Assembly: GCA_964497785.1 (NCBI GenBank)
Contig: CAZCEX010000001.1
Location: forward strand, 1 to 41,228
Direction: 5' to 3'
DNA from: an uncultured Thermoanaerobaculia bacterium
GTDB taxonomy: Bacteria; Acidobacteriota; Thermoanaerobaculia; Thermoanaerobaculales; Sulfomarinibacteraceae
Length of the DNA: 41,228 nt
The translations under genes were made by a program, and so were the position numbers. Shown here piece by piece: positions 2,172 through 39,483 of this stretch. The notes beneath the pieces were generated by a model. The model saw only the letters and a list, made by a program, of their open reading frames with translations, ran no database searches and was not told where the DNA came from. Every line of letters starts with the position of its first letter. Within the stretch, counting starts at the first letter, position 1.

Positions 2172-3272
2172 TCAGTCCCAGGCTGCCAGATCACCTGATT
2201 CGAAATCGTCGAAGAAGATCCCAGAGGATATTTTGTAGATCGCGTCGTGCACGTCGAGACCGTGAAATGCCGCCAGGTAAAGACTGCCCTGGTGTAGTGT
2301 GAAAAAATAGGGGACCTGACCGTCTCCAATGAGGTGACTGAGTTCCTCCCAGCGACCTTTCGCAAGGTCATCCCATGTACGAAACCGGACCAACTTGAAG
2401 AGGTTGGGGTCGGATCCATTCGCGTAATAGGGAGAGAAGAAATTGGACACGTACCAGTAACCGTCGTAGAACTCGATGTCGTTGATGATAAAGCCGGTCG
2501 TATCCCAGGTACCGGCGGATGTGTTGACGAGCTTCCCAAAGCTGGGATGGATCATCACCTCCCCGGTGTCGAAATCAACGATCTCGATGACCTGGCCCCA
2601 GGACGACGACGCGACGTAGACTGTGTTTTCGACGACGGTCAGCCCACGCGAGTATTTGGCGAGTCCCGACAGGTCGAGGGCGCCCTCTTGTTCCCCAAAT
2701 CGTGTCATGCGTAGCAGCGACGGCCGATCAGGGTTGAGGACATAAAGGAATCCGCTGACCGGGTCGAATGCCACATCGTGAGGTCGGGCGAGGTCAACTC
2801 CGGCAACAGAGTACGCGCTTTCGATCTCTTCATCTTCCGGGTGGGAGAACGAAATGACTCGGTGATTCTCAGTGTCGGCGGCGTAGAAACGGGAGTTATT
2901 GAGATGGTAGGTGACTGCATGGGGGCCGTTTACGGCGATTGTGGAAACGATCCACTCGCCGAGAGTTTCCTCCGGTCGGTATGTAAACCGGTCATGAACA
3001 ACCTCGGAGATGATCTCGTAGCCCGAGCCGAAGAAGATGTGTGTTGGGAGATTGAGCGAGATCGACGTATTCGCCGGCGCGTACTCCTCAACGGCGAGTG
3101 AGAACGGGGGAGCGGACCGTGCCAGGTGGGGGCGGTGGAGTTCGGGGTCCACCGGGACGTAGATTCTTTCCTCCGGCCTGCGGTCGTCAGCCGAGGCCAC
3201 GCAGCTCACGAGGGCTGCGGTGATCAGCGCCATCCATTGACGAATCCAGAACGATTGATTCGCGAATCTCAA
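2172..3272 (-). CDS. Secreted hypothetical protein, probably beta-propeller fold (NHL/SMP-30-like impression only); carries the C-terminal FxDxFExG...W tail
   Basis: 366-aa ORF with signal-like N-terminus MRFANQSFWIRQWMALITAALVSCVASADD. Repeated beta-strand-rich segments. Ends ...GIFFDDFESGDLAAWD*. Confidence 0.6.
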   Translation of the reverse strand: MRFANQSFWIRQWMALITAALVSCVASADDRRPEERIYVPVDPELHRPHLARSAPPFSLAVEEYAPANTSISLNLPTHIFFGSGYEIISEVVHDRFTYRPEETLGEWIVSTIAVNGPHAVTYHLNNSRFYAADTENHRVISFSHPEDEEIESAYSVAGVDLARPHDVAFDPVSGFLYVLNPDRPSLLRMTRFGEQEGALDLSGLAKYSRGLTVVENTVYVASSSWGQVIEIVDFDTGEVMIHPSFGKLVNTSAGTWDTTGFIINDIEFYDGYWYVSNFFSPYYANGSDPNLFKLVRFRTWDDLAKGRWEELSHLIGDGQVPYFFTLHQGSLYLAAFHGLDVHDAIYKISSGIFFDDFESGDLAAWD

Positions 3273-3326
3273 ATGCCAATCCCCTCATCCGGGTGGTGGT
3301 TTACCCGCCGACAACCGCATTGAGCT

Positions 3327-4748
3327 ATGATATGCCGGAGGAGTCGATACTGCCAGGTGAAACGATGTACGCTGCTTAAAAAGACGAACAGATGGTGGCG
3401 GGTTGTTTGCCTGGTGATGGTTGTTTTCGTATGGCCAGCCGATCCCAGATCCTGGGCAGAAGACGGTCCGGAGGTGATTCGGGGGCCCTATTTGCAGTCG
3501 AATACGCCGCATTCGGTGGTTCTGCGTTGGAAAACCGACATTCCGACGGCGACGTGGCTGGCCTACGGTCCGCAACCAGACCAACTCGATTCCACAGTCA
3601 GCGATCCGGCTGTCTTGTTCGATCATGAGGTTTTGGTTGATGGGCTGACGGCTGCAACGGACTACTACTACGCTGTTGGGGCCGACTCCGTCGTTCTCGC
3701 AGGGGGGAACGAGCAGTTTTTCATCCGGTCGGCCCCTGTGGCGGGTGCCGCCGCCGCGACGTGGATCTGGGCTTTGGGCGATTCGGGGACGGCCAAAATT
3801 GGTGCTCGCCGGGTGCGCGATGCCTACCTGTCATTCGCCGGTTCGGGCGCGACGGACGTCTGGCTGATGATGGGGGACAACGCCTACCCATCCGGGACCG
3901 CAGAGGAGTATCAGGCAGCGGTCTTTGACACCTACTCGGAGGTGTTGATCAACACCCCATTGTGGCCTGCGATAGGTAACCACGACATATTGAGCTCGGA
4001 CTCACCGACCCAGACGGGGCCTTTCTTTGATTTTTTTACCCTTCCGGACGATGCTCAGGCCGGAGGTGCAGCGAGCGGAACCGAAGCCTATTACTCCTTC
4101 GATCACGGGCCTGTCCACTTCATCTGCCTTGATACCGCCGACTCGAGCATGGCCGAGGATGGTGCCATGATGAGTTGGCTTCGACAGGATTTGGCGCCAA
4201 ATCGGGGGGGCTGGGTCATCGCCTTCTTCCACCATCCTCCGTACTCGAAGGGGCAGCACGACTCCGACGACCCCGCCGACTCGAGCGGACTGATGTTTGA
4301 CGTGCGACAGATCGTGGTCCCGATCCTCGAAGAATACGGAGTTGATCTGGTTTTGGCGGGGCATAGCCACTCCTACGAACGGTCGATTCTCCTCGATGGA
4401 CACTATGGGACCTCGGTTACCTTCGATCCTGGGACAATGGGCCTTGACGTGGGAGATGGCCGCGAGGACGGCGACGGTCCCTACCGCAAGGTAGCTGGCG
4501 CACACGGAGGTGCGGTTTTCGTCGTCACCGGAAATGGGAGCAATCTCGGAGGTGGCACATTCGATCACCCGGTCATGGTTGTGAGTCTTCGAATCCTCGG
4601 TTCTGTTGCGCTTGCAATCGACGGGGATAAGCTCGACGCCTGGATGATCGACGCCGACGGGCAAATTTTGGACTGGTTCACGATCATCAAGACCCAGACC
4701 CTGTTTGCCGATGGTTTCGAGGACGGGTCAACGAGTGCCTGGATTTGA
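3327..4748 (+). CDS. Purple-acid-phosphatase-like metallophosphoesterase (calcineurin-like), secreted; carries the C-terminal tail
   Basis: All five PAP metal-ligand blocks occur in order: LGDSGT, MMGDNAY, AIGNHD, AFFHHPPY, LAGHSHSYER. N-terminal PAP-N-like segment GPYLQSNTPHSVVLRWKTD. Hydrophobic signal region WWRVVCLVMVVFVWPA. Ends ...TLFADGFEDGSTSAWI*. The exact start is uncertain (ATG 3327 versus a downstream GTG). Confidence 0.8.
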   Translation: MICRRSRYCQVKRCTLLKKTNRWWRVVCLVMVVFVWPADPRSWAEDGPEVIRGPYLQSNTPHSVVLRWKTDIPTATWLAYGPQPDQLDSTVSDPAVLFDHEVLVDGLTAATDYYYAVGADSVVLAGGNEQFFIRSAPVAGAAAATWIWALGDSGTAKIGARRVRDAYLSFAGSGATDVWLMMGDNAYPSGTAEEYQAAVFDTYSEVLINTPLWPAIGNHDILSSDSPTQTGPFFDFFTLPDDAQAGGAASGTEAYYSFDHGPVHFICLDTADSSMAEDGAMMSWLRQDLAPNRGGWVIAFFHHPPYSKGQHDSDDPADSSGLMFDVRQIVVPILEEYGVDLVLAGHSHSYERSILLDGHYGTSVTFDPGTMGLDVGDGREDGDGPYRKVAGAHGGAVFVVTGNGSNLGGGTFDHPVMVVSLRILGSVALAIDGDKLDAWMIDADGQILDWFTIIKTQTLFADGFEDGSTSAWI

Positions 4749-6650
4749 TGGTTCTCCGGCGCCCCGAATCGCCGAGATCTGCTGCTCGGCAAGTTCGCGA
4801 TAGCGAATTGCGTTCTTGTCCTGAGAGCCTTCGGTGACCTCGCGAAAACGCTCCAGGGCCTTGATCGCATCGTCCGGGCGGCCGAGGTCCAGGTAGGCGC
4901 GGGCGAGGTGGAACATCGACAGCTGGCAGGCGACCTTGAGGTCCGGGCCGACGACATCCCACAAGGATTCGAGCTCGGATACGGCCTCGGGCCTCTTTCC
5001 GGTGGCATAGAGCACACGGCCGAGCTCGGAGGTGAAACTGCATGTGCCATACGAGATGACCTCGCGACCGTGCCTGAGCACCTCGATCGCCTCGTCGAGC
5101 CGTCCCTGTTGCTGGTAGAGCGTTGCGAGCTGGGCGTGTGATTTCGGGTGCTCCGGACGCCCCTCGATGACCTTCTTGAGGTCGGCCTCGGCGTCGTCCA
5201 GACGTCGTTGTGCGAGGGCCACCTTCGATCGCCCGACGTAAGCGCTGATGAGGCCCTTGATCTCCAACGCCCGGTCGAAAGCCTCGTGGGCCTCGTCGAG
5301 CTTGCCGTCCGCGGTCAGAGCGTGACCGTACTGCGACCAACTGAATGCGGCGCCCGGGTCGGACTTTACTCCTTGCTCCCACAAGCTCAGATTCGATTTC
5401 CACGCTGCCGCATAGCTCGAGGTCTGAAAGCCGAGCACGGCGATGACAAGGGCACACGGAATCAACACCGCGGACGCAGGCAGGCGTACCGGGATTTTTG
5501 CGACCATTCTGGCTGCGAGAATCAGGAAGCCGAGCAAAGGAAGATAGAGGTAACGATCGTGCACGATGTGCTCTTCGATGAAAGCGGAGATGTTGAATGC
5601 CGGCAACAGGGGCAAGACCCACAGGGCAAGCCCGAATCGAGCGATACGATCTCGGCGTGCCAGCCAGAGAGCGGCGGCGATCGCGACAGCCACGACGAGG
5701 GTCGGGCCCCAGAAATTGGTCCATGTCGTTGTCTCAAGAGTCACGGGCCGCAGCGGGTAGGAGGGGCCGAGCCAGAGAGGGGAAAGAGTCTGGCGGAGAT
5801 AGAAAAAGGCGATCGATGGGGCAGTGAGCACGGTTTCTAGCCATCCCGCATCCCATTGCGGCTCGACCTGTGTTCTGCCGAGTACGACACGGCGGACGAC
5901 GAGCCAGACAGCAGCAATCGCGATGAAAGGGATCATTGCCCGCCAGGGTGCCTTGCGGTTCGCACGGTCTGTTTCGGAGCGACCGGCATCGACGGCGAAC
6001 GGGATCAACAGCGGGATGGCGATGGCGATCTCTTTGGCCAGCTGGGCAAGCGAGTATGCCAGCCACGAGAAAACGTTTTTCCACCACGCTGGGCGACGGT
6101 CCGTTGACATCACCAGAATCAACGCGGCGAAGGCGCCGATTCCGACGAGGATGTCGGGTGATCCGGAGATCCAGGCAACCGACTCGACGTGAACGGGGTG
6201 GACAGCAAAGATCGCTGCGAGCACGGCGGAGACGCCGCGTGAGGGGAATAGCCTGCGCAGAAGAAGGTAGGCCAGGATGCTGACCACGGCGTGCAACAGT
6301 ATGTTCGTGATGTGCCATCCACGGGCGGACTCGAGCCCGAACGTGCGTTCGTTGGCGACCAGCCAGAGCACGAACGCCGGCCTCCAGTAGTTGCTCCAGG
6401 CCTCGGTCTTGTCACCGGTGAAGGCCCAGACATCGGACGTCAGAGCCTTGCCGAGCAGCTCGGGGTTCTGGATGAGCTGGTTCTTGAGAATCTGGTCCGT
6501 ATCGTCGTAGACAAAGCCTCCGTCGAGGATGGCCCAGTAGCAGGCAAACGTGAGTACCATCAAGGCGAGAATGACTACGACATCGAGCCCGGAGAATGCG
6601 GACGTTCGTTCGATCGGTGGAGAGTCAGGGTTGGGGGTTGGTGATGTCAC
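4728..6650 (-). CDS. Polytopic GT-C-fold glycosyltransferase-like membrane protein (PMT/TMTC/ArnT-like) fused to C-terminal TPR repeats
   Basis: About 430 aa with many hydrophobic helices. First-loop acidic motif GGFVYDDTDQI is the DD/DE motif typical of GT-C enzymes. The C-terminal ~200 aa are TPR-like (AFSWSQYGHALTADGKLDEAHEAFDRALEI..., AQLATLYQQQGRLDEAIEVL..., LARAYLDLGRPDDAIKALERF). GTG start. The 3' end overlaps the convergent phosphatase gene by 21 bp. Confidence 0.7.
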   Translation of the reverse strand: MTSPTPNPDSPPIERTSAFSGLDVVVILALMVLTFACYWAILDGGFVYDDTDQILKNQLIQNPELLGKALTSDVWAFTGDKTEAWSNYWRPAFVLWLVANERTFGLESARGWHITNILLHAVVSILAYLLLRRLFPSRGVSAVLAAIFAVHPVHVESVAWISGSPDILVGIGAFAALILVMSTDRRPAWWKNVFSWLAYSLAQLAKEIAIAIPLLIPFAVDAGRSETDRANRKAPWRAMIPFIAIAAVWLVVRRVVLGRTQVEPQWDAGWLETVLTAPSIAFFYLRQTLSPLWLGPSYPLRPVTLETTTWTNFWGPTLVVAVAIAAALWLARRDRIARFGLALWVLPLLPAFNISAFIEEHIVHDRYLYLPLLGFLILAARMVAKIPVRLPASAVLIPCALVIAVLGFQTSSYAAAWKSNLSLWEQGVKSDPGAAFSWSQYGHALTADGKLDEAHEAFDRALEIKGLISAYVGRSKVALAQRRLDDAEADLKKVIEGRPEHPKSHAQLATLYQQQGRLDEAIEVLRHGREVISYGTCSFTSELGRVLYATGKRPEAVSELESLWDVVGPDLKVACQLSMFHLARAYLDLGRPDDAIKALERFREVTEGSQDKNAIRYRELAEQQISAIRGAGEPSNPGTR

Positions 6651-7315: not shown

Positions 7316-9733
7316 TCACCGCCCACGCCGCCACCTCTTCCAGTGCATCCACAATCCCCAGAGGAAGATCACCGGACCGAGGAGGATGGCGCCCCAGAAG
7401 GCGAAGCCGGCGCGATTGGCGAGGTCCTGCATCGGGTTGGCGCCGAATGGGCTGTCGTTGACCTGATAGGTCCAGGTCGATGAGGGGCCGAGCAGGCCCT
7501 CTCGCTGCCAATCAACACCTTTCTCAGTGACCGTGATCCGGTCGAAAAGCTCGACGACACGGCTGTCGATTTCCGGTCGTAGACGCCCGAAAGCCTCGCC
7601 CGCCTCGCGCCAGAACTCTGCGAGGGGATTCTTTCCGGCAACGCCGACAACGTGAATTCCGTCCCGGATTCTGCCGACCTCTTCCAGATGGTCGCTCCAG
7701 GCACGGTCGATGGCGATCAGGGTGAGACGTCGCTCGATCAGGGACAAACCCTCGTCGCCGACGAGGGCCCGAACCGTCTTGGTTCGTTTTGGACGATGTT
7801 CGCTGATGAGGTTCAGGGGGATCAGACCGTCGAGGATGTTCTGCCGCCAACTCTGGATGTGCTGGCGCTGAGTCTCGACGAGGTTCGTATAGTCCCACAA
7901 GCGGCGTCGTACGGTGATGTTTTCGCCTTCGATGATGCGTTGGGCGCGGTCGATTTCACGCCGAAGCACGGCGCTCTCGATCGGCTCTTCCTGTTCCTTC
8001 GGGAGGTAGCGTGGCGCCACCAGGTTGCGCACTCCGTAGCGTGAAATGAGTGGATCCGTCAGGCTGGTGAAAAAACGCGAGGCGCCAGGGTCTCCTTGAC
8101 GTCCGGCTCGCCCACGGAGCTGCTGGTCGATGCGCAGGCTCTCGTGCCGATTCGTACCGATCACGTACAGACCACCAAGCGCGACCACTTCCTCACGATC
8201 GGTTTCGGAAGCGCCGCCGAGGCGGATGTCGGTCCCACGACCGGCCATGTTGGTCGAGATGGTGACCGCCCCTACGGCCCCGGCGTCGGCGATGATCTCG
8301 GCTTCGAGTTCGTCGTTCTTCGCGTTGAGCACCTGACAAGAGACTCCTGCATCGGCGAGTTTTGCCGCAAGCTCCTCAGACTCCGCAACACTGGCCGTAC
8401 CGACCAGGATCGGTCGTCCGGCGTCGTGCACACCGGCGATCTCCCTGACCAGGGCCCGCCGCTTGGCCCGCTTGTGGGTGAAGACCCGGTCAACGTGGTC
8501 GACCCGCCGGCACGGCTGGTGGAACCCAACGACGGTGACCTCGAGGCCGTAGTAACTTTCAAGCTCCTCGGTAGCTGGACGGGCCGTTGCCGTCATGCCG
8601 CACAAACGGTCGTAGGTTGTCAGAAAGTGCTGCATGGTGATCGAGCCGAGCACCTGCCCTTCATCCCCCGGACGGAGTGCTTCCTTGGCTTCGATCGCTG
8701 CCTGTAAGCCGTCCGGCCATTGGCGCCTGTCGGCGACTCGGCCAGTGAAGTCGTCGACCAGCTCGATCGCTCCGCCGCGAACGATGTAGTCGACATCGCG
8801 ATGGATCAGGTTCTCGGCGTGGAGGGCGTTTCTGAGGTGTGCGAGGAAGGCCTGGTTGTCTGGGGCGTAGAGGTTCTCCAGCCCGACGATCTCTTCGACT
8901 CGAGCCGAGCCCTGATCGGTGAGGAATATGTTGTGGCCATGCTCGTCGGTGTCGAAGTCCACGTCCTGCGTCAAGCGCCGGACCAGGTCCGCCATCGCCG
9001 CCAGACCGTCGGCCGGTTCGGTGCAGGCGCCGGCGATGACGAGCGGTATGCGGGCCTCGTCAACGAGGATTGAGTCCGCCTCATCCACCAGGGCAAATGC
9101 AGTGCGCTGCTGGATACGCTGCTCGCCGTCAAGGCAGAGCCGCTCGCGGAGAAAATCGAACCCCGCCTCCCTTGCAGTGAGATAGGTGACGTCGCAGGCA
9201 TAGGCGCGACGCTTCGCCTCGACCGTCATGCCTTCCTGGATGCTGCCGACATCGAGGTTGAAGACCTCGTAGATGGGGCTCATCCATGACGCGTCCCGTC
9301 GTGCGAGGTAGTCGTTTGCAGTCAATACATGAGCCCCAGATCCAGTGAGGGCATTGAGCACGACCGGCGCGACAGCCGCAAGCGTTTTTCCCTCGCCAGT
9401 CTGCATCTCGACGACCCGGCCTCGATGCATGGCGATGCCGGCGATCATCTGTTCGTCATAGGGTCTTTGAGCCAACGTCCGACAGGCCACCTCGCGCACG
9501 AGTGCGAAGGTTTCGCAGAGCAGGTCGTCCGACACCAGAGGTCCTTCGGCCTGGGCGTGGAGCCCTTCGGCTCTACGGAACAGAGTCTGGTCCTCGAGTG
9601 CACCGAGAGAATCCCCGAGGAGATTGATGCGTTCGAGAAGAGAAGTGAACGGGCGGATATCAGTCGCCGCCGTGGCGCCAGTCAAGTTTCCCCAAAGGCG
9701 GTTCAGGGGAGAGGGTTTACTCGGAACGGCCAT
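7316..9733 (-). CDS. secA: SecA-family preprotein translocase ATPase, atypical form with a C-terminal predicted transmembrane helix
   Basis: Motor motifs are complete: MQTGEGKTL (Walker A), LVDEADSILVDEARIPLVI (DEAD), TNMAGRGTDIRLGG, LRGRAGRQGDPG. An HSD-like block follows (IDRAWSDHLEEVGRIRDGI...NPLAEFWRE). It ends ...RAGFAFWGAILLGPVIFLWGLWMHWKRWRRGR*. I chose the start at MAVPSKPS (ATG 9733-9731) because the track's longer ORF (to 9934) would overlap the end of the upstream kinase gene. Confidence 0.85.
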   Translation of the reverse strand: MAVPSKPSPLNRLWGNLTGATAATDIRPFTSLLERINLLGDSLGALEDQTLFRRAEGLHAQAEGPLVSDDLLCETFALVREVACRTLAQRPYDEQMIAGIAMHRGRVVEMQTGEGKTLAAVAPVVLNALTGSGAHVLTANDYLARRDASWMSPIYEVFNLDVGSIQEGMTVEAKRRAYACDVTYLTAREAGFDFLRERLCLDGEQRIQQRTAFALVDEADSILVDEARIPLVIAGACTEPADGLAAMADLVRRLTQDVDFDTDEHGHNIFLTDQGSARVEEIVGLENLYAPDNQAFLAHLRNALHAENLIHRDVDYIVRGGAIELVDDFTGRVADRRQWPDGLQAAIEAKEALRPGDEGQVLGSITMQHFLTTYDRLCGMTATARPATEELESYYGLEVTVVGFHQPCRRVDHVDRVFTHKRAKRRALVREIAGVHDAGRPILVGTASVAESEELAAKLADAGVSCQVLNAKNDELEAEIIADAGAVGAVTISTNMAGRGTDIRLGGASETDREEVVALGGLYVIGTNRHESLRIDQQLRGRAGRQGDPGASRFFTSLTDPLISRYGVRNLVAPRYLPKEQEEPIESAVLRREIDRAQRIIEGENITVRRRLWDYTNLVETQRQHIQSWRQNILDGLIPLNLISEHRPKRTKTVRALVGDEGLSLIERRLTLIAIDRAWSDHLEEVGRIRDGIHVVGVAGKNPLAEFWREAGEAFGRLRPEIDSRVVELFDRITVTEKGVDWQREGLLGPSSTWTYQVNDSPFGANPMQDLANRAGFAFWGAILLGPVIFLWGLWMHWKRWRRGR

Positions 9734-9752
9734 TCGGTGCCCGTATGTTTGC

Positions 9753-11348
9753 TCAATCGCGGTCGAGCGCCTGGCGGACGCGCCGCGCCAATGTGGCCCC
9801 CGAGTAGGGTTTCTCGAGCACCTCATCGGGAGAGAGGGCGAGCAGGTGGTCCGTCGAGTACGTGGTATATCCCGTTGTGAATACGACTCGGGGTTCGTAT
9901 CCCCTTTGGCGCAAGCTTTCCACGAGCTCGACACCGCCCATATTCGGCATGACCAGGTCGGTGAGCACCAGGTCGATGTCTGCGCCGGCCTCGTCCCAGA
10001 TCCGCAGCGCTTCGAGGCCGTCGGAGGCGAACAGGACGGTATATCCTTTGCTGCAAAGCACCGTTTCTACCAGGGTGGACACTGCGGGCTCGTCCTCAAC
10101 GACGAGAATCGTCTCGTCGCCCCCCTCTGCTGTTCCTCGGTTGTTTGTCCGCTCGTGAGACGGGTTTTCGACGGAAAGGGGCAGGACGATTTCGATCGTG
10201 GTTCCCGATCCGACCTGGCTGTGAATTCCGACGGTGCCTTTGGCCTGCTGCACGATTCCGAGGGTCGTCGACAGGCCCAGACCGGTGCCATGCCCGACCT
10301 CCTTCGTCGTGAAGAAGGGGTCGAAGGCGTGGCTGAGCGTCTGTCCGTCCATGCCACTGCCGGTGTCGGAGACGGCCAGCCGGGCATAGGATCCGGGAGG
10401 CAGCCCCTGCGGCGCCGGCTCCGAGGGTGCGATCTTGCTGAGCATGAGCCTGATGGTGCCACCCTCAGGCATGGCATCGCGGGCGTTGGTAACGAGGTTG
10501 ACGACGACCTGCTCGATCTGCCCACTGTCGGCGAGGACCGGCAGTGGGTGCTGATCGAGCTGCACCTCGAGGTGAACGTTCTCACCGATGAGCCGGCTGA
10601 GCATCTTCTCGACCTCGCTGATGATGGAGTTCAGCTCGATGACCTTCGGCTGAACTTTCTGCTTGCGGCTGAACGCCAGGAGCTGGCGTACGAGCGTGGA
10701 TGCCCGTTCTCCCGCTTTGCGAATCTCTGCGACCTGCTCGAGTAGATCGGGTCTCATCGACAGTGACAGCTCGAGCAGCTCACTGTGGCCGACGATCGCA
10801 ACGAGCAGGTTGTTGAAGTCGTGGGCGATGCCACCCGCCAGCAGACCGACCGCCTCCATCTTCTGTGCCAGTCTGTAGCGCTCCTCCAGTTGCTTGCGCT
10901 CGGTGATGTCACGCCACACCACATGGAGGAACCGTTTGGACTGCTTCTCGACCGCCGTCAGGAGGACTTCGACCGGGAAGACCTCGCCGTCCGCCCGGCG
11001 GTGGTGCCATTCGAAGCGGTGATTCCCCTGCTCGAAGGCGGTTCGGATCATTTCGTCGGCCTTCTCCCGCGAGCTTCTGCCGTCTGGCTGGTACGGAGGG
11101 GAGAGCTCAGAAGGATGGGTCTGCAGGACCTGCTGTCGGTCGGAGCAGCGCAGCATCTCCACCGTCGCCTGGTTGCAGTCGACGAACTGTCCGTCTTCGA
11201 TGATCAGGATGGCGTCGGAGGTGTGCTCGAAGAGATCCCGGTAAGGATCCGTCGGTGCTCTCAAGGGATCCGGTTGCAACGGCCTTTCGTTTGATTCAGA
11301 CACCGGCGCTCCAGAGGTGACGCATGAGAGCCAGTATACAAGGGGCAC
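9753..11348 (-). CDS. Hybrid sensor histidine kinase (PAS - HisKA - HATPase_c - receiver)
   Basis: PAS-like N-terminus ([27 protein letters not shown]...). H-box [11 protein letters not shown]. ATPase blocks [11 protein letters not shown] and DTGSGM...GTGLGLS. C-terminal receiver [10 protein letters not shown]...[14 protein letters not shown]. Start is uncertain (GTG 11348 or an internal GTG). Confidence 0.85.
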
Positions 11349-11380
11349 GAGGCACGGCCGGGTCCCTCCCCAAAAAGGCG

Positions 11381-11419
11381 AACGCCTGGGTCGAAACCCA
11401 GGCGCCGCCGGTGAAAGGG
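11381..11419 (-). terminator. Candidate intrinsic terminator downstream of the repeat-lipoprotein gene
   Basis: Minus strand reads GGCG-G-CGCCTGGGT-TTCG-ACCCAGGCG-TT-CGCC followed directly by TTTTTG. That is a 13-bp GC-rich stem with small bulges plus a T-run, about 45 nt after the stop at 11464. Confidence 0.55.
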
Positions 11420-11463
11420 GGGGGGAGATCCAGACACAATGCCCGGATCAGGAGGAGACAGTT

Positions 11464-11952
11464 TTAGGAGGCAGTCTCTTTCTCGGAGGCTGGCTCGGTG
11501 TTGGACGCCAGCAGGGCTGTTGCGGTCTTCGCGGCCTCGTCAGCTGCTGCGCCGGCGGTTTTGGAGCAACCGCTCTCTGCGTAGGTCGTATCGTAGGCGG
11601 CCTGCTTGGCAGCGGTGGCCGCGGCGCTCGTCGCCGACTTCGAACATCCACTCGCTTCTTGTACGGCGGCGTAGGCGGCCTTGGTGGCCGACTTGGAGCA
11701 GCCGGTCTCGGCGTAGGTGTTCTTGTATGCCGCGGTGGCCATAGCGTCGTTGGCGGCCTTCTGCGCGGTCTTGGCGCATCCGGAGTCGGCCAAGCTTGCG
11801 TCATATGCTGCCTTGGCCGCAGCCTTGGGGCAACAGCCTTCCTTGGCGTCGGCGGTCTTGGCGCCGGCCGCGTCCTTATCGCATGCGACGACGGTACCGG
11901 TGAGTCCTAGGGCGAGGATCGCTACTGCACAGATGAGAAGGGTCTTTTTCAT
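11464..11952 (-). CDS. Ala-rich repeat lipoprotein with one Cys per repeat (function unknown)
   Basis: Start moved to MKKTLLICAVAILALGLTGTVVAC (lipobox-like VVAC), preceded by a perfect AAGGAG RBS. The mature part consists of units ending ...Y-x-x-x-[YLQ]A[ED][ST]G and restarting C[SA]K[ST]A (SGCAKTA, TGCSKSA, SGCSKSA, SGCSKTA), plus an EGCCPK. Confidence 0.75.
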   Translation of the reverse strand: MKKTLLICAVAILALGLTGTVVACDKDAAGAKTADAKEGCCPKAAAKAAYDASLADSGCAKTAQKAANDAMATAAYKNTYAETGCSKSATKAAYAAVQEASGCSKSATSAAATAAKQAAYDTTYAESGCSKTAGAAADEAAKTATALLASNTEPASEKETAS

Positions 11953-11982
11953 TTCGAGTCTCCTTTTTCTTTCTCTAATAAT

Positions 11983-12011
11983 ATTGAAACACATTCCCTT
12001 TTATTTTGCAA
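11983..12011 (-). promoter_or_regulatory. Possible sigma70-type promoter for the repeat-lipoprotein gene, inside an AT-rich island
   Basis: Minus strand reads TTGCAA-N17-TTCAAT, about 30 nt upstream of the RBS. The surrounding ~165 bp (11953-12117) are conspicuously AT-rich compared with the rest of the window. Pattern match only. Confidence 0.25.
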
Positions 12012-12117
12012 CACGTTTTCAACTACGATTGGCTGACCCTGTGGTTTCGCCTTCATGGGGAAGTATTCCGGAGATGGAGAAAAGTTACACTGCGGGTAGA
12101 AATTTTTCTGTTCGCGT

Positions 12118-13983: not shown

Positions 13984-14002
13984 CGTGAAACCTCCCGTTT
14001 CG

Positions 14003-14236
14003 GCTCGGGGAATGGCAGGTCTCCTGGCTTCCGGATGTGATCTTTTTGGCCCAAGGCCTGAAAGATCCGCCGAACCGCCTCGCCTTCCCAGCTGGGTGTC
14101 ACCCAACCAGTGGCTGGCTCGACTCCGATTGTCGGAGCTCTGCCTCGAGTGGTTCGTCCCCGGTCACAGTGGCGGGGGCCGCGCCGGTTTCACACCGGCT
14201 TCCCTCACCCGACCGAAACGACCGACGGCGCCCGAT
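14003..14236 (-). promoter_or_regulatory. Cobalamin (B12) riboswitch in the leader of the BtuB-like gene
   Basis: Minus strand reads ...GGGTGAGGGAAGCCGGTGTGAAACCGGCGCGGCCCCCGCCACTGTGACCGGGGA...GCCACTGGTTGGG...CTGGGAAGGCG... This is followed by a textbook B12 box AGCCAGGAGACCTGCC (plus-strand 14014-14029), then the GGGAGG RBS and ATG. Confidence 0.9.
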
Positions 14237-14374
14237 TGCGCCTTGAGCCGCCCCGGCGGGCTCAACCATTCCCATTTGTCCCGGTCACAGTAGGTGCCTT
14301 GGGGCCCCGGGTCAAGAGGGCTGTGTTAGTGTTTGGCGGTCTTGGCGATTTATTTGGAGCGGCTCTTCGTGAAA

Positions 14375-16552: not shown

Positions 16553-16613
16553 CCCTGGTCATCGAGTTGGGCGAACGGCCTCATACGACACGTCGGTGAG
16601 ATACACTCCGCCG

Positions 16614-18962
16614 ATGAGGTTGGTCTTGTCGAAGCGGTGGTTGGTATTTCTTCTCATGGTCGGTGGAATGGTTGGCGCCGAAGGACTGCCGCCTGGTGAT
16701 CATGATCGCTCTCGAGGCGAAGAGGAGAGGATCCGCCAACGGGAGCAATGGTTCTTCGAAAGCCGCGGCCTCGGCGGTGTTGAGCGACCGGATCTCATCC
16801 GCGCCAGCGCGGTGGAGCAGTTGAGGTCGGCCTCTGAAGGTGGGCGGGACATCCTGACTCGGTGGCGCAACCTCGGTCCGGAGAGCATGACGATGTTTGA
16901 CTGGGCCATGGGCAATGTGGCCGGGAGGGTGGCGGCGCTGGCCGTGGATCCGACCGACGAAAATACGATGTATCTCGGGGCCGCCTCAGGTGGGTTGTGG
17001 AAGACCGTCAACGGCGGCGCCTCGTGGGCGCCCATTTTCGACGACGTCGGAACGCAGACGATCGGCGCGATCTTCGTCGATCCCGCCGATTCGGATGTGG
17101 TCTGGGTTGGAACCGGAGAGCAGGGCCAGTCGTGCGGATCGTACTTCGGTCTCGGCCTGTTTCGTTCGCAAGATGGCGGCGCCACGTTCGAGGCCGTCAA
17201 CGGAACCCCGAGCCACCCCCTGCGGTTGTCCTACATTTCGAGCATCGTCGTGCACCCTCAGGATGCGCAGATCGTACTCGCCGGTGGCCATGGTTGGTGC
17301 TCGAACGGCACCTACTACGGTGGCGGACTCTACCGGTCAACCGACGGCGGCGCTACATGGTACCTGGAACTCTCAGGGCCGATGACCGACATCCTGGTCG
17401 ATCCCAATGAGCCGGGCACCATGTATGCGGCCATGGGCCGATGGGCGTGGTCCAACGACGGAATCTACAAGTCGACGGACGGTGGTTCCGCCTGGACGAG
17501 ATTGACAAACGGGATTCCCTACGGCGAGTCGGTAGGGCGAATCCGAATTGCAGCAGCATCCCAGAACCCCCAGATTCTGTATGCGCTCGTCAACAACGCG
17601 TCGAATTCCGCCAGCGGGCTCTACCGATCCGAGGACGGGGGCGCCCAATGGTCCCTTCAAAACGACGACGCCTGTGAAGGTCAATGTTGGTACGATCTCT
17701 GCCTGGCAGTCGATCCATTCAACAGCAATACCGTGCTGGTGGGATCGATTCGTTTCGCCCGGTCCACTGATGCCGGTATCACCCTCGAGTACTTGACCGA
17801 TGGCTGGGGAGGCGACCAGACGGTTCACCAGGACACCCATGTCCTGCTCTTTTCGACACGCGCTTATGGTCGATTCTGGGTCGGCTCGGATGGGGGACTG
17901 TGGAGAACCGACAACAGTGGGGTCGGATTCACGAACCTCAATGCAAACCTCGATGTGACGCAGTTCTACGATATTGCGGTGCATCCCAGCGATGGCGAGA
18001 TTATTTTTGGGGGCAGTCAAGACAACAGCTCGAGTCGGCGTAATGCTTATCAGGTCTGGGATACGACCGTGGTGTCGGGTGACGGCTTCATGAACCTCGT
18101 GAGCCCCGAGGACCCGAATACGGTATTTCAAACGAGCTATCCGTGGGGCGACAAACCCTCGATCTGTAAATCGGTGACAGGCGGAGGTCCGGGCAGCTGT
18201 TGGTGGATGAGCACCGACGGGATCGGTTCGGGCGAACCCTTTCCGTGGGTCACGCCGCTCGCCGTGTCGCACGCTGGGCCCGGTATACCGGCTCAACTAT
18301 TCGTGGCCTCGCACTCGGTCTACCGCGGCAGGGCCGATCAGTCGTCGTCGGCCTTCGAGTGGACGAAGATCTCGGGTGCTCTCACCGAAGACGAGTCGCC
18401 GGTCTCGGTGCTGGCGTCCCACTTCGACGGGCAGTCGGTCATCCTCTATGTCGGTACGGCCAACGGGCAGATCTGGCGCAATGACGACGCCATGGCGGGG
18501 ACCGCATGGCAGGACGTGACCGGCGCATACCCGGGCGGACGGATCAGCGACATCGCGGTCGATCCGACGCAGCCGGATCGGCTATTTGTCACCCGCAGTG
18601 AGTTTGGCGGCTCGAAGGTCTTCCGCTCCTTGACGGGTGGCGTGAGTTGGGCCGCCGCTGGTCAGGGGCTGCCGAATGTCCCCGCGAACACCGTAGCCAT
18701 CGATCCGGTGAACCCATTCAGGGTCTTTGTCGGCAACGATGTGGGTGTTTTTGAAAGCCTCAACGGGGGCGTTTCATTCACTCCGTCGACCAGAGGTTTA
18801 CCGCTCGGCGTGGTCGTCACCGACCTCGAGATCGATGACGACCCGCACTTGCTGACAGCCGGCACCTACGGCCGCGGCGCCTGGCAGAGAGACCTCGACC
18901 AGAATGTCAGCGGGATCTTCACTGATAATTTCGAGAGCGGTACCACCGACGCGTGGCGGTAA
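16614..18962 (+). CDS. Secreted BNR/Asp-box repeat beta-propeller protein (sortilin-VPS10 / GH74 / Ycf48-like architecture); carries the C-terminal tail
   Basis: Multiple SxDxGxTW-type boxes: SQDGGATF, STDGGATW, STDGGSAW, SEDGGAQW, STDAGITL, TDNSGVGF, LTGGVSW, LNGGVSF. Signal MRLVLSKRWLVFLLMVGGMVGAEG. Ends ...GIFTDNFESGTTDAWR*. Start could also be GTG 16596. Confidence 0.75.
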   Translation: MRLVLSKRWLVFLLMVGGMVGAEGLPPGDHDRSRGEEERIRQREQWFFESRGLGGVERPDLIRASAVEQLRSASEGGRDILTRWRNLGPESMTMFDWAMGNVAGRVAALAVDPTDENTMYLGAASGGLWKTVNGGASWAPIFDDVGTQTIGAIFVDPADSDVVWVGTGEQGQSCGSYFGLGLFRSQDGGATFEAVNGTPSHPLRLSYISSIVVHPQDAQIVLAGGHGWCSNGTYYGGGLYRSTDGGATWYLELSGPMTDILVDPNEPGTMYAAMGRWAWSNDGIYKSTDGGSAWTRLTNGIPYGESVGRIRIAAASQNPQILYALVNNASNSASGLYRSEDGGAQWSLQNDDACEGQCWYDLCLAVDPFNSNTVLVGSIRFARSTDAGITLEYLTDGWGGDQTVHQDTHVLLFSTRAYGRFWVGSDGGLWRTDNSGVGFTNLNANLDVTQFYDIAVHPSDGEIIFGGSQDNSSSRRNAYQVWDTTVVSGDGFMNLVSPEDPNTVFQTSYPWGDKPSICKSVTGGGPGSCWWMSTDGIGSGEPFPWVTPLAVSHAGPGIPAQLFVASHSVYRGRADQSSSAFEWTKISGALTEDESPVSVLASHFDGQSVILYVGTANGQIWRNDDAMAGTAWQDVTGAYPGGRISDIAVDPTQPDRLFVTRSEFGGSKVFRSLTGGVSWAAAGQGLPNVPANTVAIDPVNPFRVFVGNDVGVFESLNGGVSFTPSTRGLPLGVVVTDLEIDDDPHLLTAGTYGRGAWQRDLDQNVSGIFTDNFESGTTDAWR

Positions 18963-18991: not shown

Positions 18992-19199
18992 TCAACGCAG
19001 AGGCGCAAAGGCGCAAAGGCGCAGAGAAGGAGAACCGGTAGAACCTTCGTATTCGGTAGGTCGTGACGCGTTGGCTGTGAGGCCAGCCTCCTGAGTTTCT
19101 CAGCGGGAGACCAGCAGGCCCGTATGGCGAAAAATCGTTCAGAAATTCCCTTTTTTCATAACTTTACGTCTTTGCGCCTTTGCGTTGATCTCTTCCTAC
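18992..19199. repeat. REP/MITE-like element: inverted CGCAAAG-repeat arms flanking ~130 bp, between two convergent genes
   Basis: Left arm is TCAACGCAGAGGCGCAAAGGCGCAAAGGCGCAGAG (18992-19025). The reverse complement of the right arm (19167-19190) is TCAACGCAAAGGCGCAAAGACG, matching 18/19 over the core. The right arm abuts the stop codon of the S8 protease gene (19196-19198). A related element occurs at 37795-37875. Confidence 0.7.
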
Positions 19200-20719
19200 T
19201 CGATCGTTTCGGACCACGCGGAGGTGTTGCCGGTCTCGAACCCGTCGGAGAAAAGCTCGAGCGGGCTGATGAGGAGGGCGGCGTTGACGGCGGCGAGGGC
19301 ATCGATCCGGCCCCAACCGTAGACGTTGTTCGGGACGTCGGTCGGTCCGTCCCCGCCGCAGCCTTCGTTGGTCGTGAGTGGGACCGCGGTATCGCGGATG
19401 ATCTGCTCGATGGTGTCGACGTCGCCTGCGAGGTTGGGGTTGGCCGAGATCATCAGGGCGACGAGGCCGGCAACGTGCGGGCCTGCCATGCTGGTTCCAT
19501 TCCAACCGCCGTCGTAGGAACCGTCTCGAGTGCTCGATCGGATGTCTACCCCAGGAGCGGAGATGTCCGGTTTCAAGCGGTTGCTGTTGTCGACGGTGAC
19601 CGGGCCACGGCTCGAGAATCCGGCGATGTCGTCGATCCAGTCGGTGGCGCCGACCGAAAAGCTCGCGTCGTAGGTAGCAGACGGTGTGGCGACGCTGCTG
19701 CAGCCGGAGCCCTCGTTGCCGGCCGAGTGGACCGTGACGATTCCCGCTGCGCGGACATTGTCGACGACGGTGAGCAGAACGTTGGGATCGGTGCAACCTT
19801 CGCTTTCGGGACAGCCCCAGGAGTTGTTGATGACGTGCGGCGCGAGGTCGGGGTTTGGGTTCAGGCCCGCGAGATCGGTCGGGGCCATGAAGAACTGGTA
19901 ACACTCGGTATAGGTCGCCGGTGTGCCGTCGCCCTGGTCCATGTTGCGACAGGCGATCCATTCGGCGCCAGGCGCCATGCCGACCTGGTTGCTGCCGCCG
20001 TCGTCGCCGATGATGGTGCCCATGGTGTGGGTGCCGTGGCCGTGGTCATCGCACGGTTCTGGGGAGTCACCAATGCAGCTCCCGGAGCTCGAGTGCACAG
20101 CATCGTGCCAGTTGTAATCGTGGTTCCCTGCGCCGCCACGGTACTGATTGACGAGGGCGGTGTGGCTCCAGAGATAGCCGGTGTCCTGACCCGCGACGAC
20201 GGCGCCGCTGCCGTTGATTCCGAGGGCCCATACGAGGTCTGCTCCGACGTGGGAGATGTTCCACTCGACGCCGCGCATCGCCGGGGCGCTGGTGTGGGCT
20301 GGGTCGAGCGTGCTGACGTGCACGCGCGGGTTCGCGCTGATGCGCTTCACGTCGACTCGTTCCGCCATCGCCCGTACGGTGTTGATGCCACCACGGACCC
20401 AGATCATGTTGGCCACCCAGTAGGCGCGGTGCTCGACTCTGGAGGCTGTGAGCGCTGCGAGTACCGGTCCCTGAGTAGCGGAGGCCGTCGCCGTCAGGCG
20501 TTTGTAGACGGCGCGTCCCTTTGCGGCCTTGCTTCGAAGGAGCTTGATAGCGCTCAGGTCAGCCTGCTCCTCGAGGACGACGAGGAACTCGGTCTCACCC
20601 GCCCGGCTGGTATTCAACACCCAGGGATCGACCTTCGAAACCCACGCTTGATCGCCAGCGCCAAAACACAAAGATGCAGCTGCGATCAGCAAACAACAGA
20701 AAAAGAATCGCGTCTTCAT
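19196..20719 (-). CDS. Secreted subtilisin-like serine protease (S8) with N-terminal propeptide; carries the C-terminal tail
   Basis: Catalytic triad blocks in order: VVAGQDTGY (Asp), HGHGTHTMGT (His), GTSMAGPHVAG (Ser). Signal MKTRFFFCCLLIAAASLCFGA. I9-like pro-region. Ends ...ELFSDGFETGNTSAWSETIE*. Confidence 0.9.
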   Translation of the reverse strand: MKTRFFFCCLLIAAASLCFGAGDQAWVSKVDPWVLNTSRAGETEFLVVLEEQADLSAIKLLRSKAAKGRAVYKRLTATASATQGPVLAALTASRVEHRAYWVANMIWVRGGINTVRAMAERVDVKRISANPRVHVSTLDPAHTSAPAMRGVEWNISHVGADLVWALGINGSGAVVAGQDTGYLWSHTALVNQYRGGAGNHDYNWHDAVHSSSGSCIGDSPEPCDDHGHGTHTMGTIIGDDGGSNQVGMAPGAEWIACRNMDQGDGTPATYTECYQFFMAPTDLAGLNPNPDLAPHVINNSWGCPESEGCTDPNVLLTVVDNVRAAGIVTVHSAGNEGSGCSSVATPSATYDASFSVGATDWIDDIAGFSSRGPVTVDNSNRLKPDISAPGVDIRSSTRDGSYDGGWNGTSMAGPHVAGLVALMISANPNLAGDVDTIEQIIRDTAVPLTTNEGCGGDGPTDVPNNVYGWGRIDALAAVNAALLISPLELFSDGFETGNTSAWSETIE

Positions 20720-30712: not shown

Positions 30713-30746
30713 TGATGGCGAGCGCACAGATTCGTGGAGCGTCGCC

Positions 30747-37892: not shown

Positions 37893-39218
37893 TTACGGAG
37901 CAGTCGGAGACCAGCGGGAAGTCTCACCGGACTCGAACCCGTCGGCGAAGAGGACGCCGACGCCCTCGAACGCGCCGATGTCGTGGGTGACGCCGATGGG
38001 GCGAAAGGCGCCCTCCAGATCGGTTGTCACATCAGCGCGGAGCTGACCGGCATCGGCCCCGGGGCTGCCCAACTTCAGGTGGTAGTCGTTGGCGGGCACT
38101 GACTCGAACAGTTGAGTGGGGGAGGCTACCAGTGAAGAGAGATCCTGGCCCGTAGCCGTACGCCACTCGGCCAAGGTCAAGACCGTATCGCCATCGTCGA
38201 GGGTGAACCGATCTTCGACCGCATTGTTGTTCGAGGTGAATCCCGGCAGGCACGATGCGCACACCGACATGGCGCCGCGATAGCTCTGCTCGCTCCAGAA
38301 GACATTGTTGCGCACCACGTTACCGGTGGAACTGCTCTGGATGTTGAGGGCCCAGCGGCCGTCCGAAGCGACCAGGACCGTATTGTTGAGTACCCGGTTG
38401 TTATTCGAACCGGCGGCGCCGTCGATCTGGTAGAGCGAGATGCCGCTGGCGTGGCTGTCGTAGATCAGGTTGTTACGCACCAACGAGCTCTGAACACCGT
38501 CCATGTTGATGCCCGAGCCGCCGCCGACGCCGTTGTCCCAGATGACGTTGTTCTCGACCAGGGCATCGCTGATCAGGCCGTCGCCGCCCATTGACGCGTC
38601 ACCGTTCATGTGGATGCCGTTGGCGTTGTTGCCCCAGATGAGGTTGCCTCGGATCACCGGACGGTCGCCGCTGTTGCTGGTATAGATACCGTGCTCGAGG
38701 CCGCTTCTCGATGTCTCGTTGCCTTCGATGAGCAGGTCGTTGCAAAAGCCGGTGAAGATGCCCCAGGTACCGTTGGAGTCACAGCTGTTGTTGCGGATGG
38801 TGACATGGTCACACAGCACGGCGCGGATGCCGGCGCGGCTGCGACCGTTGACCGTGAAACCTTCGATCACGATCCAACTCGCCCCTTCGATGTTGAAACC
38901 GTCCGGCGTCGACGGGTTGTCGGCGGTGATCTGAGGTGCAGAGCCGTCTGTAGCTCGAAAGGTGATCGGCTCGGTGGAGGTGCCGGACGTCGTCAGCTCG
39001 GCGCCGACGTAGCTCCCGTCGAGCACGAGAACCGTGTCGCCGGCCAGGACCTCGTCAGCGGCGTGCTGCAGGGTCGCCCAGGGCAAGACTTCGCTTCCTG
39101 GGTTCGTGTCGTTGCCTTGTGGTGGTGGCGCGACCCAGTAGGTCGTGGCGGCGAGGGTGGGGGAGGTGATGAGGAGTGCCAAGCAGGTCAGCCCCAATGC
39201 TCGAAAACAGATGTTCAT
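37893..39218 (-). CDS. Secreted right-handed parallel beta-helix repeat protein (pectate-lyase/NosD-like fold); carries the C-terminal tail
   Basis: Signal MNICFRALGLTCLALLITSPTLAA. YWVAPPPQGNDTNPGS...PWATLQHAADEVLAGDTVLVLDGSY opening, typical of this family. Repeated N-x-I/V-x-x-N turns (IRNNSCDSNG, IEGNETSRSG, IRGNLIWGNN, VENNVIWDNG, VRNNLIYDSH). Ends ...VLFADGFESGETSRWSPTAP*. ATG 39218 has a GGAGGG RBS; the track starts one codon earlier at TTG. Confidence 0.8.
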   Translation of the reverse strand: MNICFRALGLTCLALLITSPTLAATTYWVAPPPQGNDTNPGSEVLPWATLQHAADEVLAGDTVLVLDGSYVGAELTTSGTSTEPITFRATDGSAPQITADNPSTPDGFNIEGASWIVIEGFTVNGRSRAGIRAVLCDHVTIRNNSCDSNGTWGIFTGFCNDLLIEGNETSRSGLEHGIYTSNSGDRPVIRGNLIWGNNANGIHMNGDASMGGDGLISDALVENNVIWDNGVGGGSGINMDGVQSSLVRNNLIYDSHASGISLYQIDGAAGSNNNRVLNNTVLVASDGRWALNIQSSSTGNVVRNNVFWSEQSYRGAMSVCASCLPGFTSNNNAVEDRFTLDDGDTVLTLAEWRTATGQDLSSLVASPTQLFESVPANDYHLKLGSPGADAGQLRADVTTDLEGAFRPIGVTHDIGAFEGVGVLFADGFESGETSRWSPTAP

Positions 39219-39483
39219 CAAAGACCCTCCGCTGGTCCATTCTCGGGGTATTGCTGGCCGAACGGTGTGACGACCCTCACGGCCTCATTCGTGACGGTTT
39301 ACGCAACCGGTGTTCTTCCCAGCGCCGGCCTTCTGGGATGCCGTAGGACGGTCATCCCAGCGTCGCATGAGCAGCGCGGTCGCGCGGAGAAGGTTGGATC
39401 GTCTGCGACCACGCTGCTCAAGCGAGCGGCGGCCTACCTCGTAGACTGGAGATCACGGTCGCAACGACCTCCCCGGGCATTGC

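Follow-up and report, generated by a model that had tools for sequence, protein, structure and literature searches.

A modular C-terminal tail on unrelated exported proteins of Acidobacteriota, a candidate tag for sorting or surface retention

Introduction

A 41,228-nucleotide stretch of DNA from an uncultured Thermoanaerobaculia bacterium of the Sulfomarinibacteraceae (assembly GCA_964497785.1, contig CAZCEX010000001.1, positions 1 to 41,228 of the forward strand; the window in the following) encodes five proteins that end in the same kind of short C-terminal tail. An earlier note, made from the sequence alone, had drawn attention to this tail as a candidate sorting or recognition tag on unrelated secreted proteins. 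The locus raises the question of what the tail is, where it comes from and what it does for the proteins that carry it. Short C-terminal signals have earlier led to envelope machineries, namely sortases, exosortases, rhombosortases, myxosortases and the type IX secretion system (T9SS), and the tail has most of the statistical hallmarks that stood behind those discoveries. Thermoanaerobaculia and Holophagae are abundant, almost uncultured Acidobacteriota of sediment and soil that export degradative enzymes and extracellular electron carriers. The explanation favoured here, with a probability of roughly 0.55, is that the window has five copies of a modular C-terminal tag, specific to the lineage, by which proteins are sorted or kept at the surface in Acidobacteriota, mainly Thermoanaerobaculia and Holophagae.

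Results

Five protein-level copies of one tail in the window

The five tails were found exactly at the coordinates, on the strands and with the sequences that had been reported for them. Each is followed directly by the stop codon:

Tail A, GIFFDDFESGDLAAWD, 2172..2222, minus strand: truncated, stop 1 residue past the Trp; Leu at the position termed x10, like true jelly-roll domain starts
Tail B, TLFADGFEDGSTSAWI, 4698..4748, plus strand: truncated, stop 1 residue past the Trp
Tail C, GIFTDNFESGTTDAWR, 18912..18962, plus strand: truncated, stop 1 residue past the Trp
Tail D, ELFSDGFETGNTSAWSETIE, 19196..19258, minus strand: full length with 5 residues after the Trp; the last is Glu, not Pro
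Tail E, VLFADGFESGETSRWSPTAP, 37893..37955, minus strand: canonical, 5 residues after the Trp and a terminal Pro

The residues F, D, F, E, G and W are invariant across the five. A six-frame regular-expression search for F.[DN].FE.G returned exactly five matches in the window, all of them 6-10 residues upstream of a stop, and the degenerate DNA pattern TTYNNNGAYNNNTTYGARNNNGGN(12)TGG also matched five times, whereas 100 dinucleotide-preserving shuffles averaged 0.00 matches. The window was found to contain no additional tails of degenerate or short form. A rough map gave about 26 genes, in keeping with the earlier count of five tails in about 27 genes, and both the divergent pair (A/B) and the tail-to-tail pair (C/D) are arranged as described.

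Identity among the window tails at third codon positions is 0.49, and the 60 nucleotides downstream of the tails are 25% identical, which equals random expectation. The likeness is thus confined to the protein level, with varying synonymous sites and unrelated flanks, and a DNA repeat or mobile element as carrier of the tail was rejected. Stop-codon recoding or readthrough was likewise excluded because the stop codons of tail genes A to E are mixed (TGA, TGA, TAA, TAG and TAA), all three being in use.

Distribution and consensus of the tail

A genome scan applying a DNA pattern to one genome from each of 185,579 species yielded at least 118 loci; taxon proportions are those of a sample drawn in an unknown order. 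Most of the loci are in Acidobacteriota metagenome-assembled genomes (MAGs) labelled Thermoanaerobaculia, Thermoanaerobaculales, Holophagae, Acanthopleuribacteraceae, Ca. Multivoradales or Ca. Sulfomarinibacteraceae, the last two being orders or families of Thermoanaerobaculia. The names of homologs of window proteins likewise point to a Thermoanaerobaculia-like member of the Acidobacteriota as the source of the window. Among the matches listed, 131 contain the motif in frame, 90 of them from Acidobacteriota-labelled MAGs, and in 77 of these 90 it lies at most 12 residues from the stop. Four separate tail loci were listed for a single MAG (JBCCGX01), and a locus around an ortholog of protein E (the window protein with tail E) holds three tail genes within 21 kb.

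The commonest layout over all taxa has exactly 5 residues after the Trp (51 of the 88 C-terminal matches listed), and Pro is the last residue in 42 of 48 among the matches listed. The consensus tail reads h-F-x-D-G-F-E-S-G-D-T-S-A-W-S-x-T-V-P-COOH, about 20 residues. Hence the motif of the earlier note was real, modular and C-terminal, but drawn too short: the canonical tail runs on to W-S-x-T-V-P-COOH, and tails A to C are truncated variants.

For an exhaustive hidden Markov model (HMM) search of 1.84 billion proteins, a profile was made from the window tails and database fragments; a padded 40-residue tail profile retrieved only nine short fragments. The search gave 6,352 cluster representatives at E <= 1e-3, a total that includes internal jelly-roll domain starts. 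Single tails score about 50 bits, and among the single-copy top matches 49 of 56 are C-terminal. By the genome scan and the HMM search, the tail is abundant and strongly enriched in the clade.

Twelve library proteins carry two or three copies of the tail at the C-terminus, about 20 residues apart, for example one ending in IFADGFESGDTSAWSKLSSPFIFADGFESGDTTAWSG (P0032, P0041, P0053, P0054, P0058, P0068, P0074, P0077, P0078, P0083, P0089 and P0095). Given these tandem copies, the tail is a self-contained unit. Homologs of protein E (120 proteins at >=60% identity) have full tails, tails stopping at or just past the Trp, degenerate tails, or very short ends in which IFADGFE or IFADGFD directly precedes the stop. 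Judged by their sequences, the truncated forms are allelic variants of the same element. The short form is conserved in a sub-clade of the beta-helix family (e.g. P0241, P0250, P0252 and P0264), and some of these proteins carry the NCBI labels Rhodanobacteraceae or Vicinamibacterales. There may accordingly be a minimal core, h-F-x-D-G-F-[ED], with a range wider than Thermoanaerobaculia and Holophagae.

The tail is carried by unrelated exported proteins and occupies an anchor slot

The 77 tail proteins from the listed loci comprise 42 Pfam and 67 NCBIfam families, including FG-GAP, BNR, beta-helix, S8, reprolysin, GSDH, DUF1501, ThuA and GH114, and their alignment outside the tail has a mean column identity of about 8%. 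A 235-residue exported protein with four CxxCH haem-binding motifs (cytochrome c) and a canonical tail, encoded at 17069-17776 of the locus around the E ortholog (L119), suggests that the tagged cargo extends to small multihaem cytochromes. Signal-peptide-like N-termini, scored by a crude heuristic, were found in 49 of 60 tail proteins (82%) against 80 of 230 other open reading frames (ORFs) of the same loci (35%; p = 6e-11), which is the enrichment that had been proposed as a check. The notion of unrelated secreted proteins thus held at large: the tail is a modular element on unrelated Sec-type exported proteins.

A choice-of-anchor Q, J or B domain is present in 12 of the 77 tail proteins, and in the representatives examined 2-10 residues separate the end of the domain model from the tail. 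Protein E has a gap of a few residues between its NCBIfam choice-of-anchor Q domain and the tail. The choice-of-anchor models of NCBIfam owe their name to the fact that the C-terminal anchor which follows them differs between lineages. Because these domains directly precede the tail, it occupies the anchor slot. In a relative of protein D with 68% identity (L108), a choice-of-anchor J domain is inserted between the S8 domain and the tail, which therefore stays terminal despite the changed architecture. Matches of tail proteins to myxosortase-, rhombosortase- and T9SS-dependent peptidase models of the M36 type arise solely from the choice-of-anchor J (MAM-like) domain. They were not counted as anchor swaps, as only this shared domain matches.

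The tail is predicted to be disordered and is conserved

An AlphaFold2 model of protein E, calculated with 57 homologs, is a confident beta-helix (mean predicted local distance difference test score, pLDDT, 91; predicted template modelling score 0.87). Residues 422-441, which are the tail, have a pLDDT below 50 and are unpacked, in contrast to values above 90 in the passenger. According to this model, the tail is a flexible appendage outside the passenger fold.

Tail hits in the genome scan were defined by a regular expression, which fixes the invariant residues by construction. An alignment of 58 protein E orthologs, chosen without it, therefore served as an independent check. In these orthologs the majority-residue frequency is 0.79 in the tail core and 0.75 in the passenger, F424 and W436 never vary, and D, G, F and E hardly do. 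A terminal peptide that is disordered and yet conserved looks like a functional linear motif, and not like a decaying remnant or a structural strand.

The motif resembles the first hairpin of jelly-roll domains

Outside Acidobacteriota, the motif is internal in 24 of 32 among the matches listed, in Chloroflexia and Ktedonobacterales (Chloroflexota), Actinomycetota, Fimbriimonadales (Armatimonadota), Verrucomicrobiota and a haloarchaeon. Most of the outcomes that the earlier note had named as refuting thus did not come about: within Acidobacteriota, C-terminal placement prevails and signal peptides are enriched among tail proteins. Internal placement prevails in other phyla. There the motif forms the first strand or strands of jelly-roll domains, so that it is not specific to tails. 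The internal copies align to profile positions of about 1-6 of 3keto-disac_hyd/DUF1080, Polysacc_lyase, Cip1-like and CBM_4_9. At the top of the exhaustive search stand proteins with 2-6 tandem jelly-rolls and the motif at the start of each, with a period of about 190-300 residues.

A comparison of 137 tails with 198 domain starts gave the same core profile, and the core h-F-x-D-[GD]-F-E-S-G-x-x-S-A-W is near-identical in tails and in ConA/LamG jelly-rolls (the four families above, Laminin_G_3 and NTTRR-F1). In the jelly-rolls, however, the hairpin is followed by about 170-280 further residues, whereas the tails stop 0-12 residues past the Trp. The x10 position is a buried Leu or Phe in the domains (Leu/Phe in 74% of domain starts) but Thr in 69% of tails, with Leu in window tail A as an exception. 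The S-x-T-V-P terminus was seen in tails only. Tails, unlike domain starts, are enriched in Ser/Thr at +1 and +3, and their last residue is Pro in 78% of cases. A tblastn search with 199 domain remainders found no jelly-roll remainder 3' of the window tails, and a split gene or frameshift concealing the rest of the domain was rejected on this ground.

At the level of sequence, the motif corresponds to the first beta-hairpin of ConA/LamG-type jelly-roll domains, standing alone in the tails, and this N-terminal hairpin is very probably their evolutionary source. The Thr at x10 and the tail-only S-x-T-V-P terminus argue that the tail is not merely a truncated domain. The link to the jelly-roll is new information that constrains both origin and mechanism of the tail, and the case illustrates how a linear motif that stands by itself can arise by reuse of a structural beta-hairpin from a common domain.

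A domain-start copy was also seen in a Sulfomarinibacteraceae MAG (L120), where an operon-like stretch at 11022-14793 encodes Mannosyl_trans2, a TMEM260_N/PMT_2 GT-C glycosyltransferase and then a signal-anchored protein of 211 residues. The latter carries the tail-like FLDGFESGDTTWWSQTVP right after its signal, ahead of a domain of about 150 residues.

No described sorting domain covers the tail

Pfam and NCBIfam (release 20) were searched at E <= 10 with whole tail proteins and with isolated window and canonical tails, and none of their models matched the tail. The only weak NCBIfam matches were to an internal junction of the rhombosortase-dependent M36 model and to the start of NTTRR-F1. 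A PDB sequence search with the tail profile gave chance-level matches only, and no chain contains the tail. Full-text literature searches on motif words, clade and C-terminal sorting found no description of it; in the main text of Flieder et al. 2021 (PMC8528874) the words 'C-terminal' and 'sorting' are absent. The NCBI names of tail proteins refer to the passenger domain only. The proposed comparison with named sorting models thus leaves the tail uncovered. The absence of a model match, of a transmembrane (TM) helix and of a basic cluster, together with the length of about 20 residues, bears out the earlier view that it is not PEP-CTERM, LPXTG, GlyGly-CTERM or a T9SS C-terminal domain (CTD). 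Only 0-12 mostly polar residues follow the Trp, and a C-terminal TM scan flagged no tail protein. The tail is net acidic, and its consensus end is S-x-T-V-P.

For small C-terminal sorting domains, seven attributes have been listed by Haft 2023 (doi 10.1101/2023.06.07.544157). Five of the seven are found in the tail, which lies at the C-terminus (attribute 1), occurs in many copies (2), has invariant signature residues (3) and is borne by proteins that mostly have signal peptides (6) and are otherwise unrelated (7).

Passenger proteins in the window and search for a partner gene

The five genes that encode tail proteins in the window are:

Gene A, 2172..3272, minus strand: NHL-repeat beta-propeller-like protein, signal-peptide-like N-terminus, possible lipobox (LVSC)
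Gene B, 3327..4748, plus strand: Metallophos + Pur_ac_phosph_N, purple-acid-phosphatase-like metallophosphoesterase; divergent from gene A
Gene C, 16596..18962, plus strand: Sortilin/BNR propeller; directly 3' of a TonB-dependent receptor gene (14333-16552)
Gene D, 19196..20719, minus strand: S8 subtilase (Peptidase_S8); convergent with gene C
Gene E (= P0157), 37893..39221, minus strand: right-handed beta-helix (Beta_helix/NosD), choice-of-anchor Q domain (residues 377-419), then the tail

The fold assignments of the earlier note agree with these domain matches. The signal peptides it had reported were seen by inspection on all five proteins, as a basic n-region followed by a hydrophobic h-region. 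Two TonB-dependent receptor genes lie upstream of gene C (12118-14106, minus strand; 14333-16552, plus strand). Such a gene order is reminiscent of polysaccharide-utilisation loci, and a partner enzyme exposed at the surface would be in keeping with it.

Several candidates for a partner gene were considered. Genes for large Ser/Thr kinases with tetratricopeptide repeats (TPR) adjoin tail genes in 10 of 73 loci (e.g. L042 2493-5498, L059 4378-7380 and L031 5106-7898), and in L042 the kinase-TPR gene and the tail gene overlap by 4 nucleotides. They were judged to be paralog-rich background, as the recurrence may only reflect a big paralogous family. The window gene at 4728-6650 (minus strand) encodes a multi-pass membrane protein with about eight predicted TM helices and a C-terminal TPR domain; it is convergent with gene B, and the 3' ends overlap by 21 nucleotides. 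No Pfam or PDB match and no detectable glycosyltransferase domain were found in its membrane part, whose FVYDD loop motif may resemble TMTC/PMT-type GT-C transferases. Because the protein was not seen again at other tail loci and shows neither a glycosyltransferase signature nor a recognisable catalytic domain, it was not retained as a partner.

At 27978-35409 (plus strand) lies a Cus-type heavy-metal efflux operon with genes for an outer-membrane factor, for a CusB-like adaptor that contains a heavy-metal-binding domain, and for a pump of the AcrB family; two small genes, conserved but without assigned function, come next (33926-34627 and 34624-35409). The same gene order is found in the Sulfomarinibacteraceae MAG mentioned above (L120 1-10783). 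The product of the second small gene is a conserved, secreted protein of 260 residues with 259 homologs, and the family is essentially without Pfam annotation (PF18986 is precomputed on 2 of 120 listed homologs). Its AlphaFold2 model (pLDDT 78) consists of two beta-sandwich halves, for which Foldseek gave only weak matches. The family is present in 5 of 73 tail loci and was rejected as a partner, being a conserved member of the Cus operon that is predicted to fold as tandem beta-sandwiches and not as an incomplete jelly-roll.

The SecA ORF of the window (7316-9934, minus strand) ends in a hydrophobic TM-like segment and KRWRRGR, instead of the usual C-terminal zinc-binding tail.

Discussion

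The tail is a short, conserved C-terminal element, largely confined to Acidobacteriota, on exported proteins of many families. We infer a function in sorting or retention, with docking as the mechanism. The tag would derive from, or mimic, the first beta-hairpin of a ConA/LamG-type jelly-roll, and would later have gained constraints of its own, namely Thr in place of the buried Leu/Phe at x10 and the T-V-P carboxy-terminus. After Sec export, the exposed acidic and aromatic hairpin most likely acts as a recognition element and would dock, probably as a beta-strand or hairpin, onto an envelope component. This component would move the protein to or across the outer membrane, or keep it in the matrix or on the cell surface. 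The hairpin origin makes beta-strand augmentation a plausible mode of docking, whereas the Thr at a normally buried position speaks against a split jelly-roll being literally completed. As a speculation, the terminal Pro may shield the free end from carboxypeptidases.

Several observations weigh against a sorting or retention tag. Neighbourhood analysis of 73 tail loci did not find a cognate receptor or processing gene, be it a receptor, protease or transferase linked to the tail, and around one E ortholog there was neither synteny nor a conserved partner. Two of the seven attributes of sorting domains are lacking, the TM helix (4) and the basic cluster at the end (5). The same words form an ordinary domain start elsewhere, and 9-13 of the 90 Acidobacteriota matches listed are internal. 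Within one ortholog family the tail shows graded truncations, to the Trp or even to IFADGFE-COOH, so that much of it is dispensable in some lineages. The signal-peptide test measured hydrophobicity, in a manner applied uniformly to both groups. The taxon proportions are sample-based, and MAG labels may be wrong, as for the three C-terminal matches labelled Deltaproteobacteria or Pirellulaceae and for the short forms labelled Rhodanobacteraceae or Vicinamibacterales.

An alternative, unlikely on balance, is that the tail is a modification site, with the Thr/Ser-rich G-D-T-S-A-W-S-x-T O-glycosylated or otherwise modified, or a site for a C-terminal processing protease that would mature or turn over exported proteins. 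Either could coexist with a sorting or retention tag. The Thr at the normally buried x10 and the Ser/Thr enrichment at +1 and +3 would fit such a role, as would the disorder and accessibility of the tail in the AlphaFold2 model. GT-C membrane glycosyltransferase genes (Mannosyl_trans2, TMEM260_N/PMT_2) are present in these genomes, one of them directly 5' of the small motif protein, and the multi-pass membrane TPR protein is encoded convergent to gene B. Yet no glycosyltransferase domain could be detected in the latter, nor does it recur at other tail loci, and the association in L120 is a single case with the motif in a domain-start context. Furthermore, invariance is confined to F, D, F, E, G and W and does not extend to Ser/Thr, and the short forms ending in DGFE are conserved without any Thr/Ser position.

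Somewhat less probable still is a ligand- or matrix-binding peptide, for Ca2+, exopolysaccharide or a mineral surface, that keeps exo-enzymes and cytochromes near the cell without a protein receptor. The tail is acidic (D, E, D, with a core devoid of basic residues) and has the aromatic residues F, F and W, tandem copies would raise avidity, the passengers are exo-enzymes, adhesin-like propellers and a multihaem cytochrome, and no receptor gene was found. On the other hand, a hairpin of 13-20 residues is small for specific carbohydrate binding, and in intact jelly-rolls it is a structural edge or core element and not the known ligand site. Such a peptide would also leave the strict C-terminal position and the conserved T-V-P-COOH unexplained.

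Doubtful, too, is a split-domain docking tag, for which a dedicated envelope receptor would present an incomplete jelly-roll or the exposed edge of a barrel, to be completed or augmented by the orphan beta1-beta2 hairpin. If true, this would be a secretion or surface-display system new to science in Thermoanaerobaculia and Holophagae, using strand complementation instead of sortase-like membrane processing, and it would load dozens of unrelated exo-enzymes, adhesin-like propellers and cytochromes.

The two remaining explanations are largely excluded. One is a functionless remnant, either the first strands of a lost C-terminal jelly-roll or a generic inter-domain linker. The motif does equal profile positions 1-6 of ConA-like families, several tails stand behind the final strand of a MAM/choice-of-anchor J jelly-roll, where a tandem array would have its next domain, and graded truncations exist. 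A remnant would be expected to decay, however, and conservation in the tail core equals that of the folded passenger. Tails also share derived features which domain starts do not have (Thr at x10, S-x-T-V-P-COOH and, in 51 of 88 listed cases, exactly 5 residues after the Trp), and the tail can be tandemly duplicated. The presence of the tail on 42 Pfam families would moreover require dozens of independent, identically placed truncations. These points make a remnant very improbable. Least credible is an intramolecular element such as a propeller 'velcro' strand or a beta-helix cap: two of the five window passengers are beta-propellers, which are often closed by a terminal strand, but the same tail is found on subtilases, metallophosphatases, beta-helices, cytochromes and many other folds, exists in tandem and is unpacked in the protein E model.

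The tail shares much with known sorting signals. LPXTG/sortase, PEP-CTERM/exosortase, GlyGly-CTERM/rhombosortase, MYXO-CTERM/myxosortase and IPTL-CTERM are likewise short extreme-C-terminal domains with many copies per genome and several invariant residues, on otherwise unrelated signal-peptide carriers, after choice-of-anchor domains and within one lineage. The tail differs from them by lacking a hydrophobic TM segment and an Arg/Lys cluster, being instead acidic and Pro-ended, and by matching none of the NCBIfam or Pfam models. Without TM helix and basic cluster it cannot work like the sortase-, exosortase-, rhombosortase- or myxosortase-type signals that are processed in the membrane, and cleavage by an intramembrane protease with attachment of a lipid or cell-wall anchor is implausible. 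Since the membrane-spanning part is common to all small signals, the reader of the tail is likely a different kind of machine. In a Thermoanaerobaculia MAG (L041), two adjacent ORFs (930-1934 and 1906-2928) have IPTL-CTERM-like ends with IPTLS or IPALS, then a TM helix and then a cluster of basic residues, so that the tail and anchors of the classical exosortase type are found side by side.

Likewise comparable is the CTD of the T9SS, a C-terminal non-membrane signal on Sec-exported hydrolases, propellers and adhesins of diderm bacteria, with a similar passenger repertoire. Its recognition follows Sec export and leads to translocation across the outer membrane and attachment at the surface. 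The CTD, in contrast, is a folded Ig-like beta-sandwich of 70-100 residues, whereas the tail has about 20 residues, is predicted to be disordered and matches no CTD model. The T9SS is characteristic of Bacteroidota and not of Acidobacteriota, and no T9SS machinery genes (PorU/PorV/SprA and others) were found in the 41-kb window. Nor does the tail resemble the beta-signal of outer-membrane proteins, an aromatic last residue of a C-terminal barrel strand, as tails end in Pro and the passengers have soluble folds.

Whatever its reader, the tail flags a large list of probable surface or secreted proteins in Thermoanaerobaculia and Holophagae, among them peptidases, phosphatases, glycan-active propellers and multihaem cytochromes, and the profile of about 50 bits is now usable for annotation and phylogenetic profiling. 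A functional analogy, with no relationship in sequence or family, is offered by dockerin-cohesin pairs, donor-strand complementation in chaperone-usher pili and the cargo-loading peptides of encapsulins. Dockerins are Ca2+-binding helical modules of about 70 residues, and encapsulin cargo is cytoplasmic. In all of these systems, however, a short terminal module on unrelated cargo docks non-covalently to one receptor, and the two segments of a dockerin find a parallel in the tandem tails.

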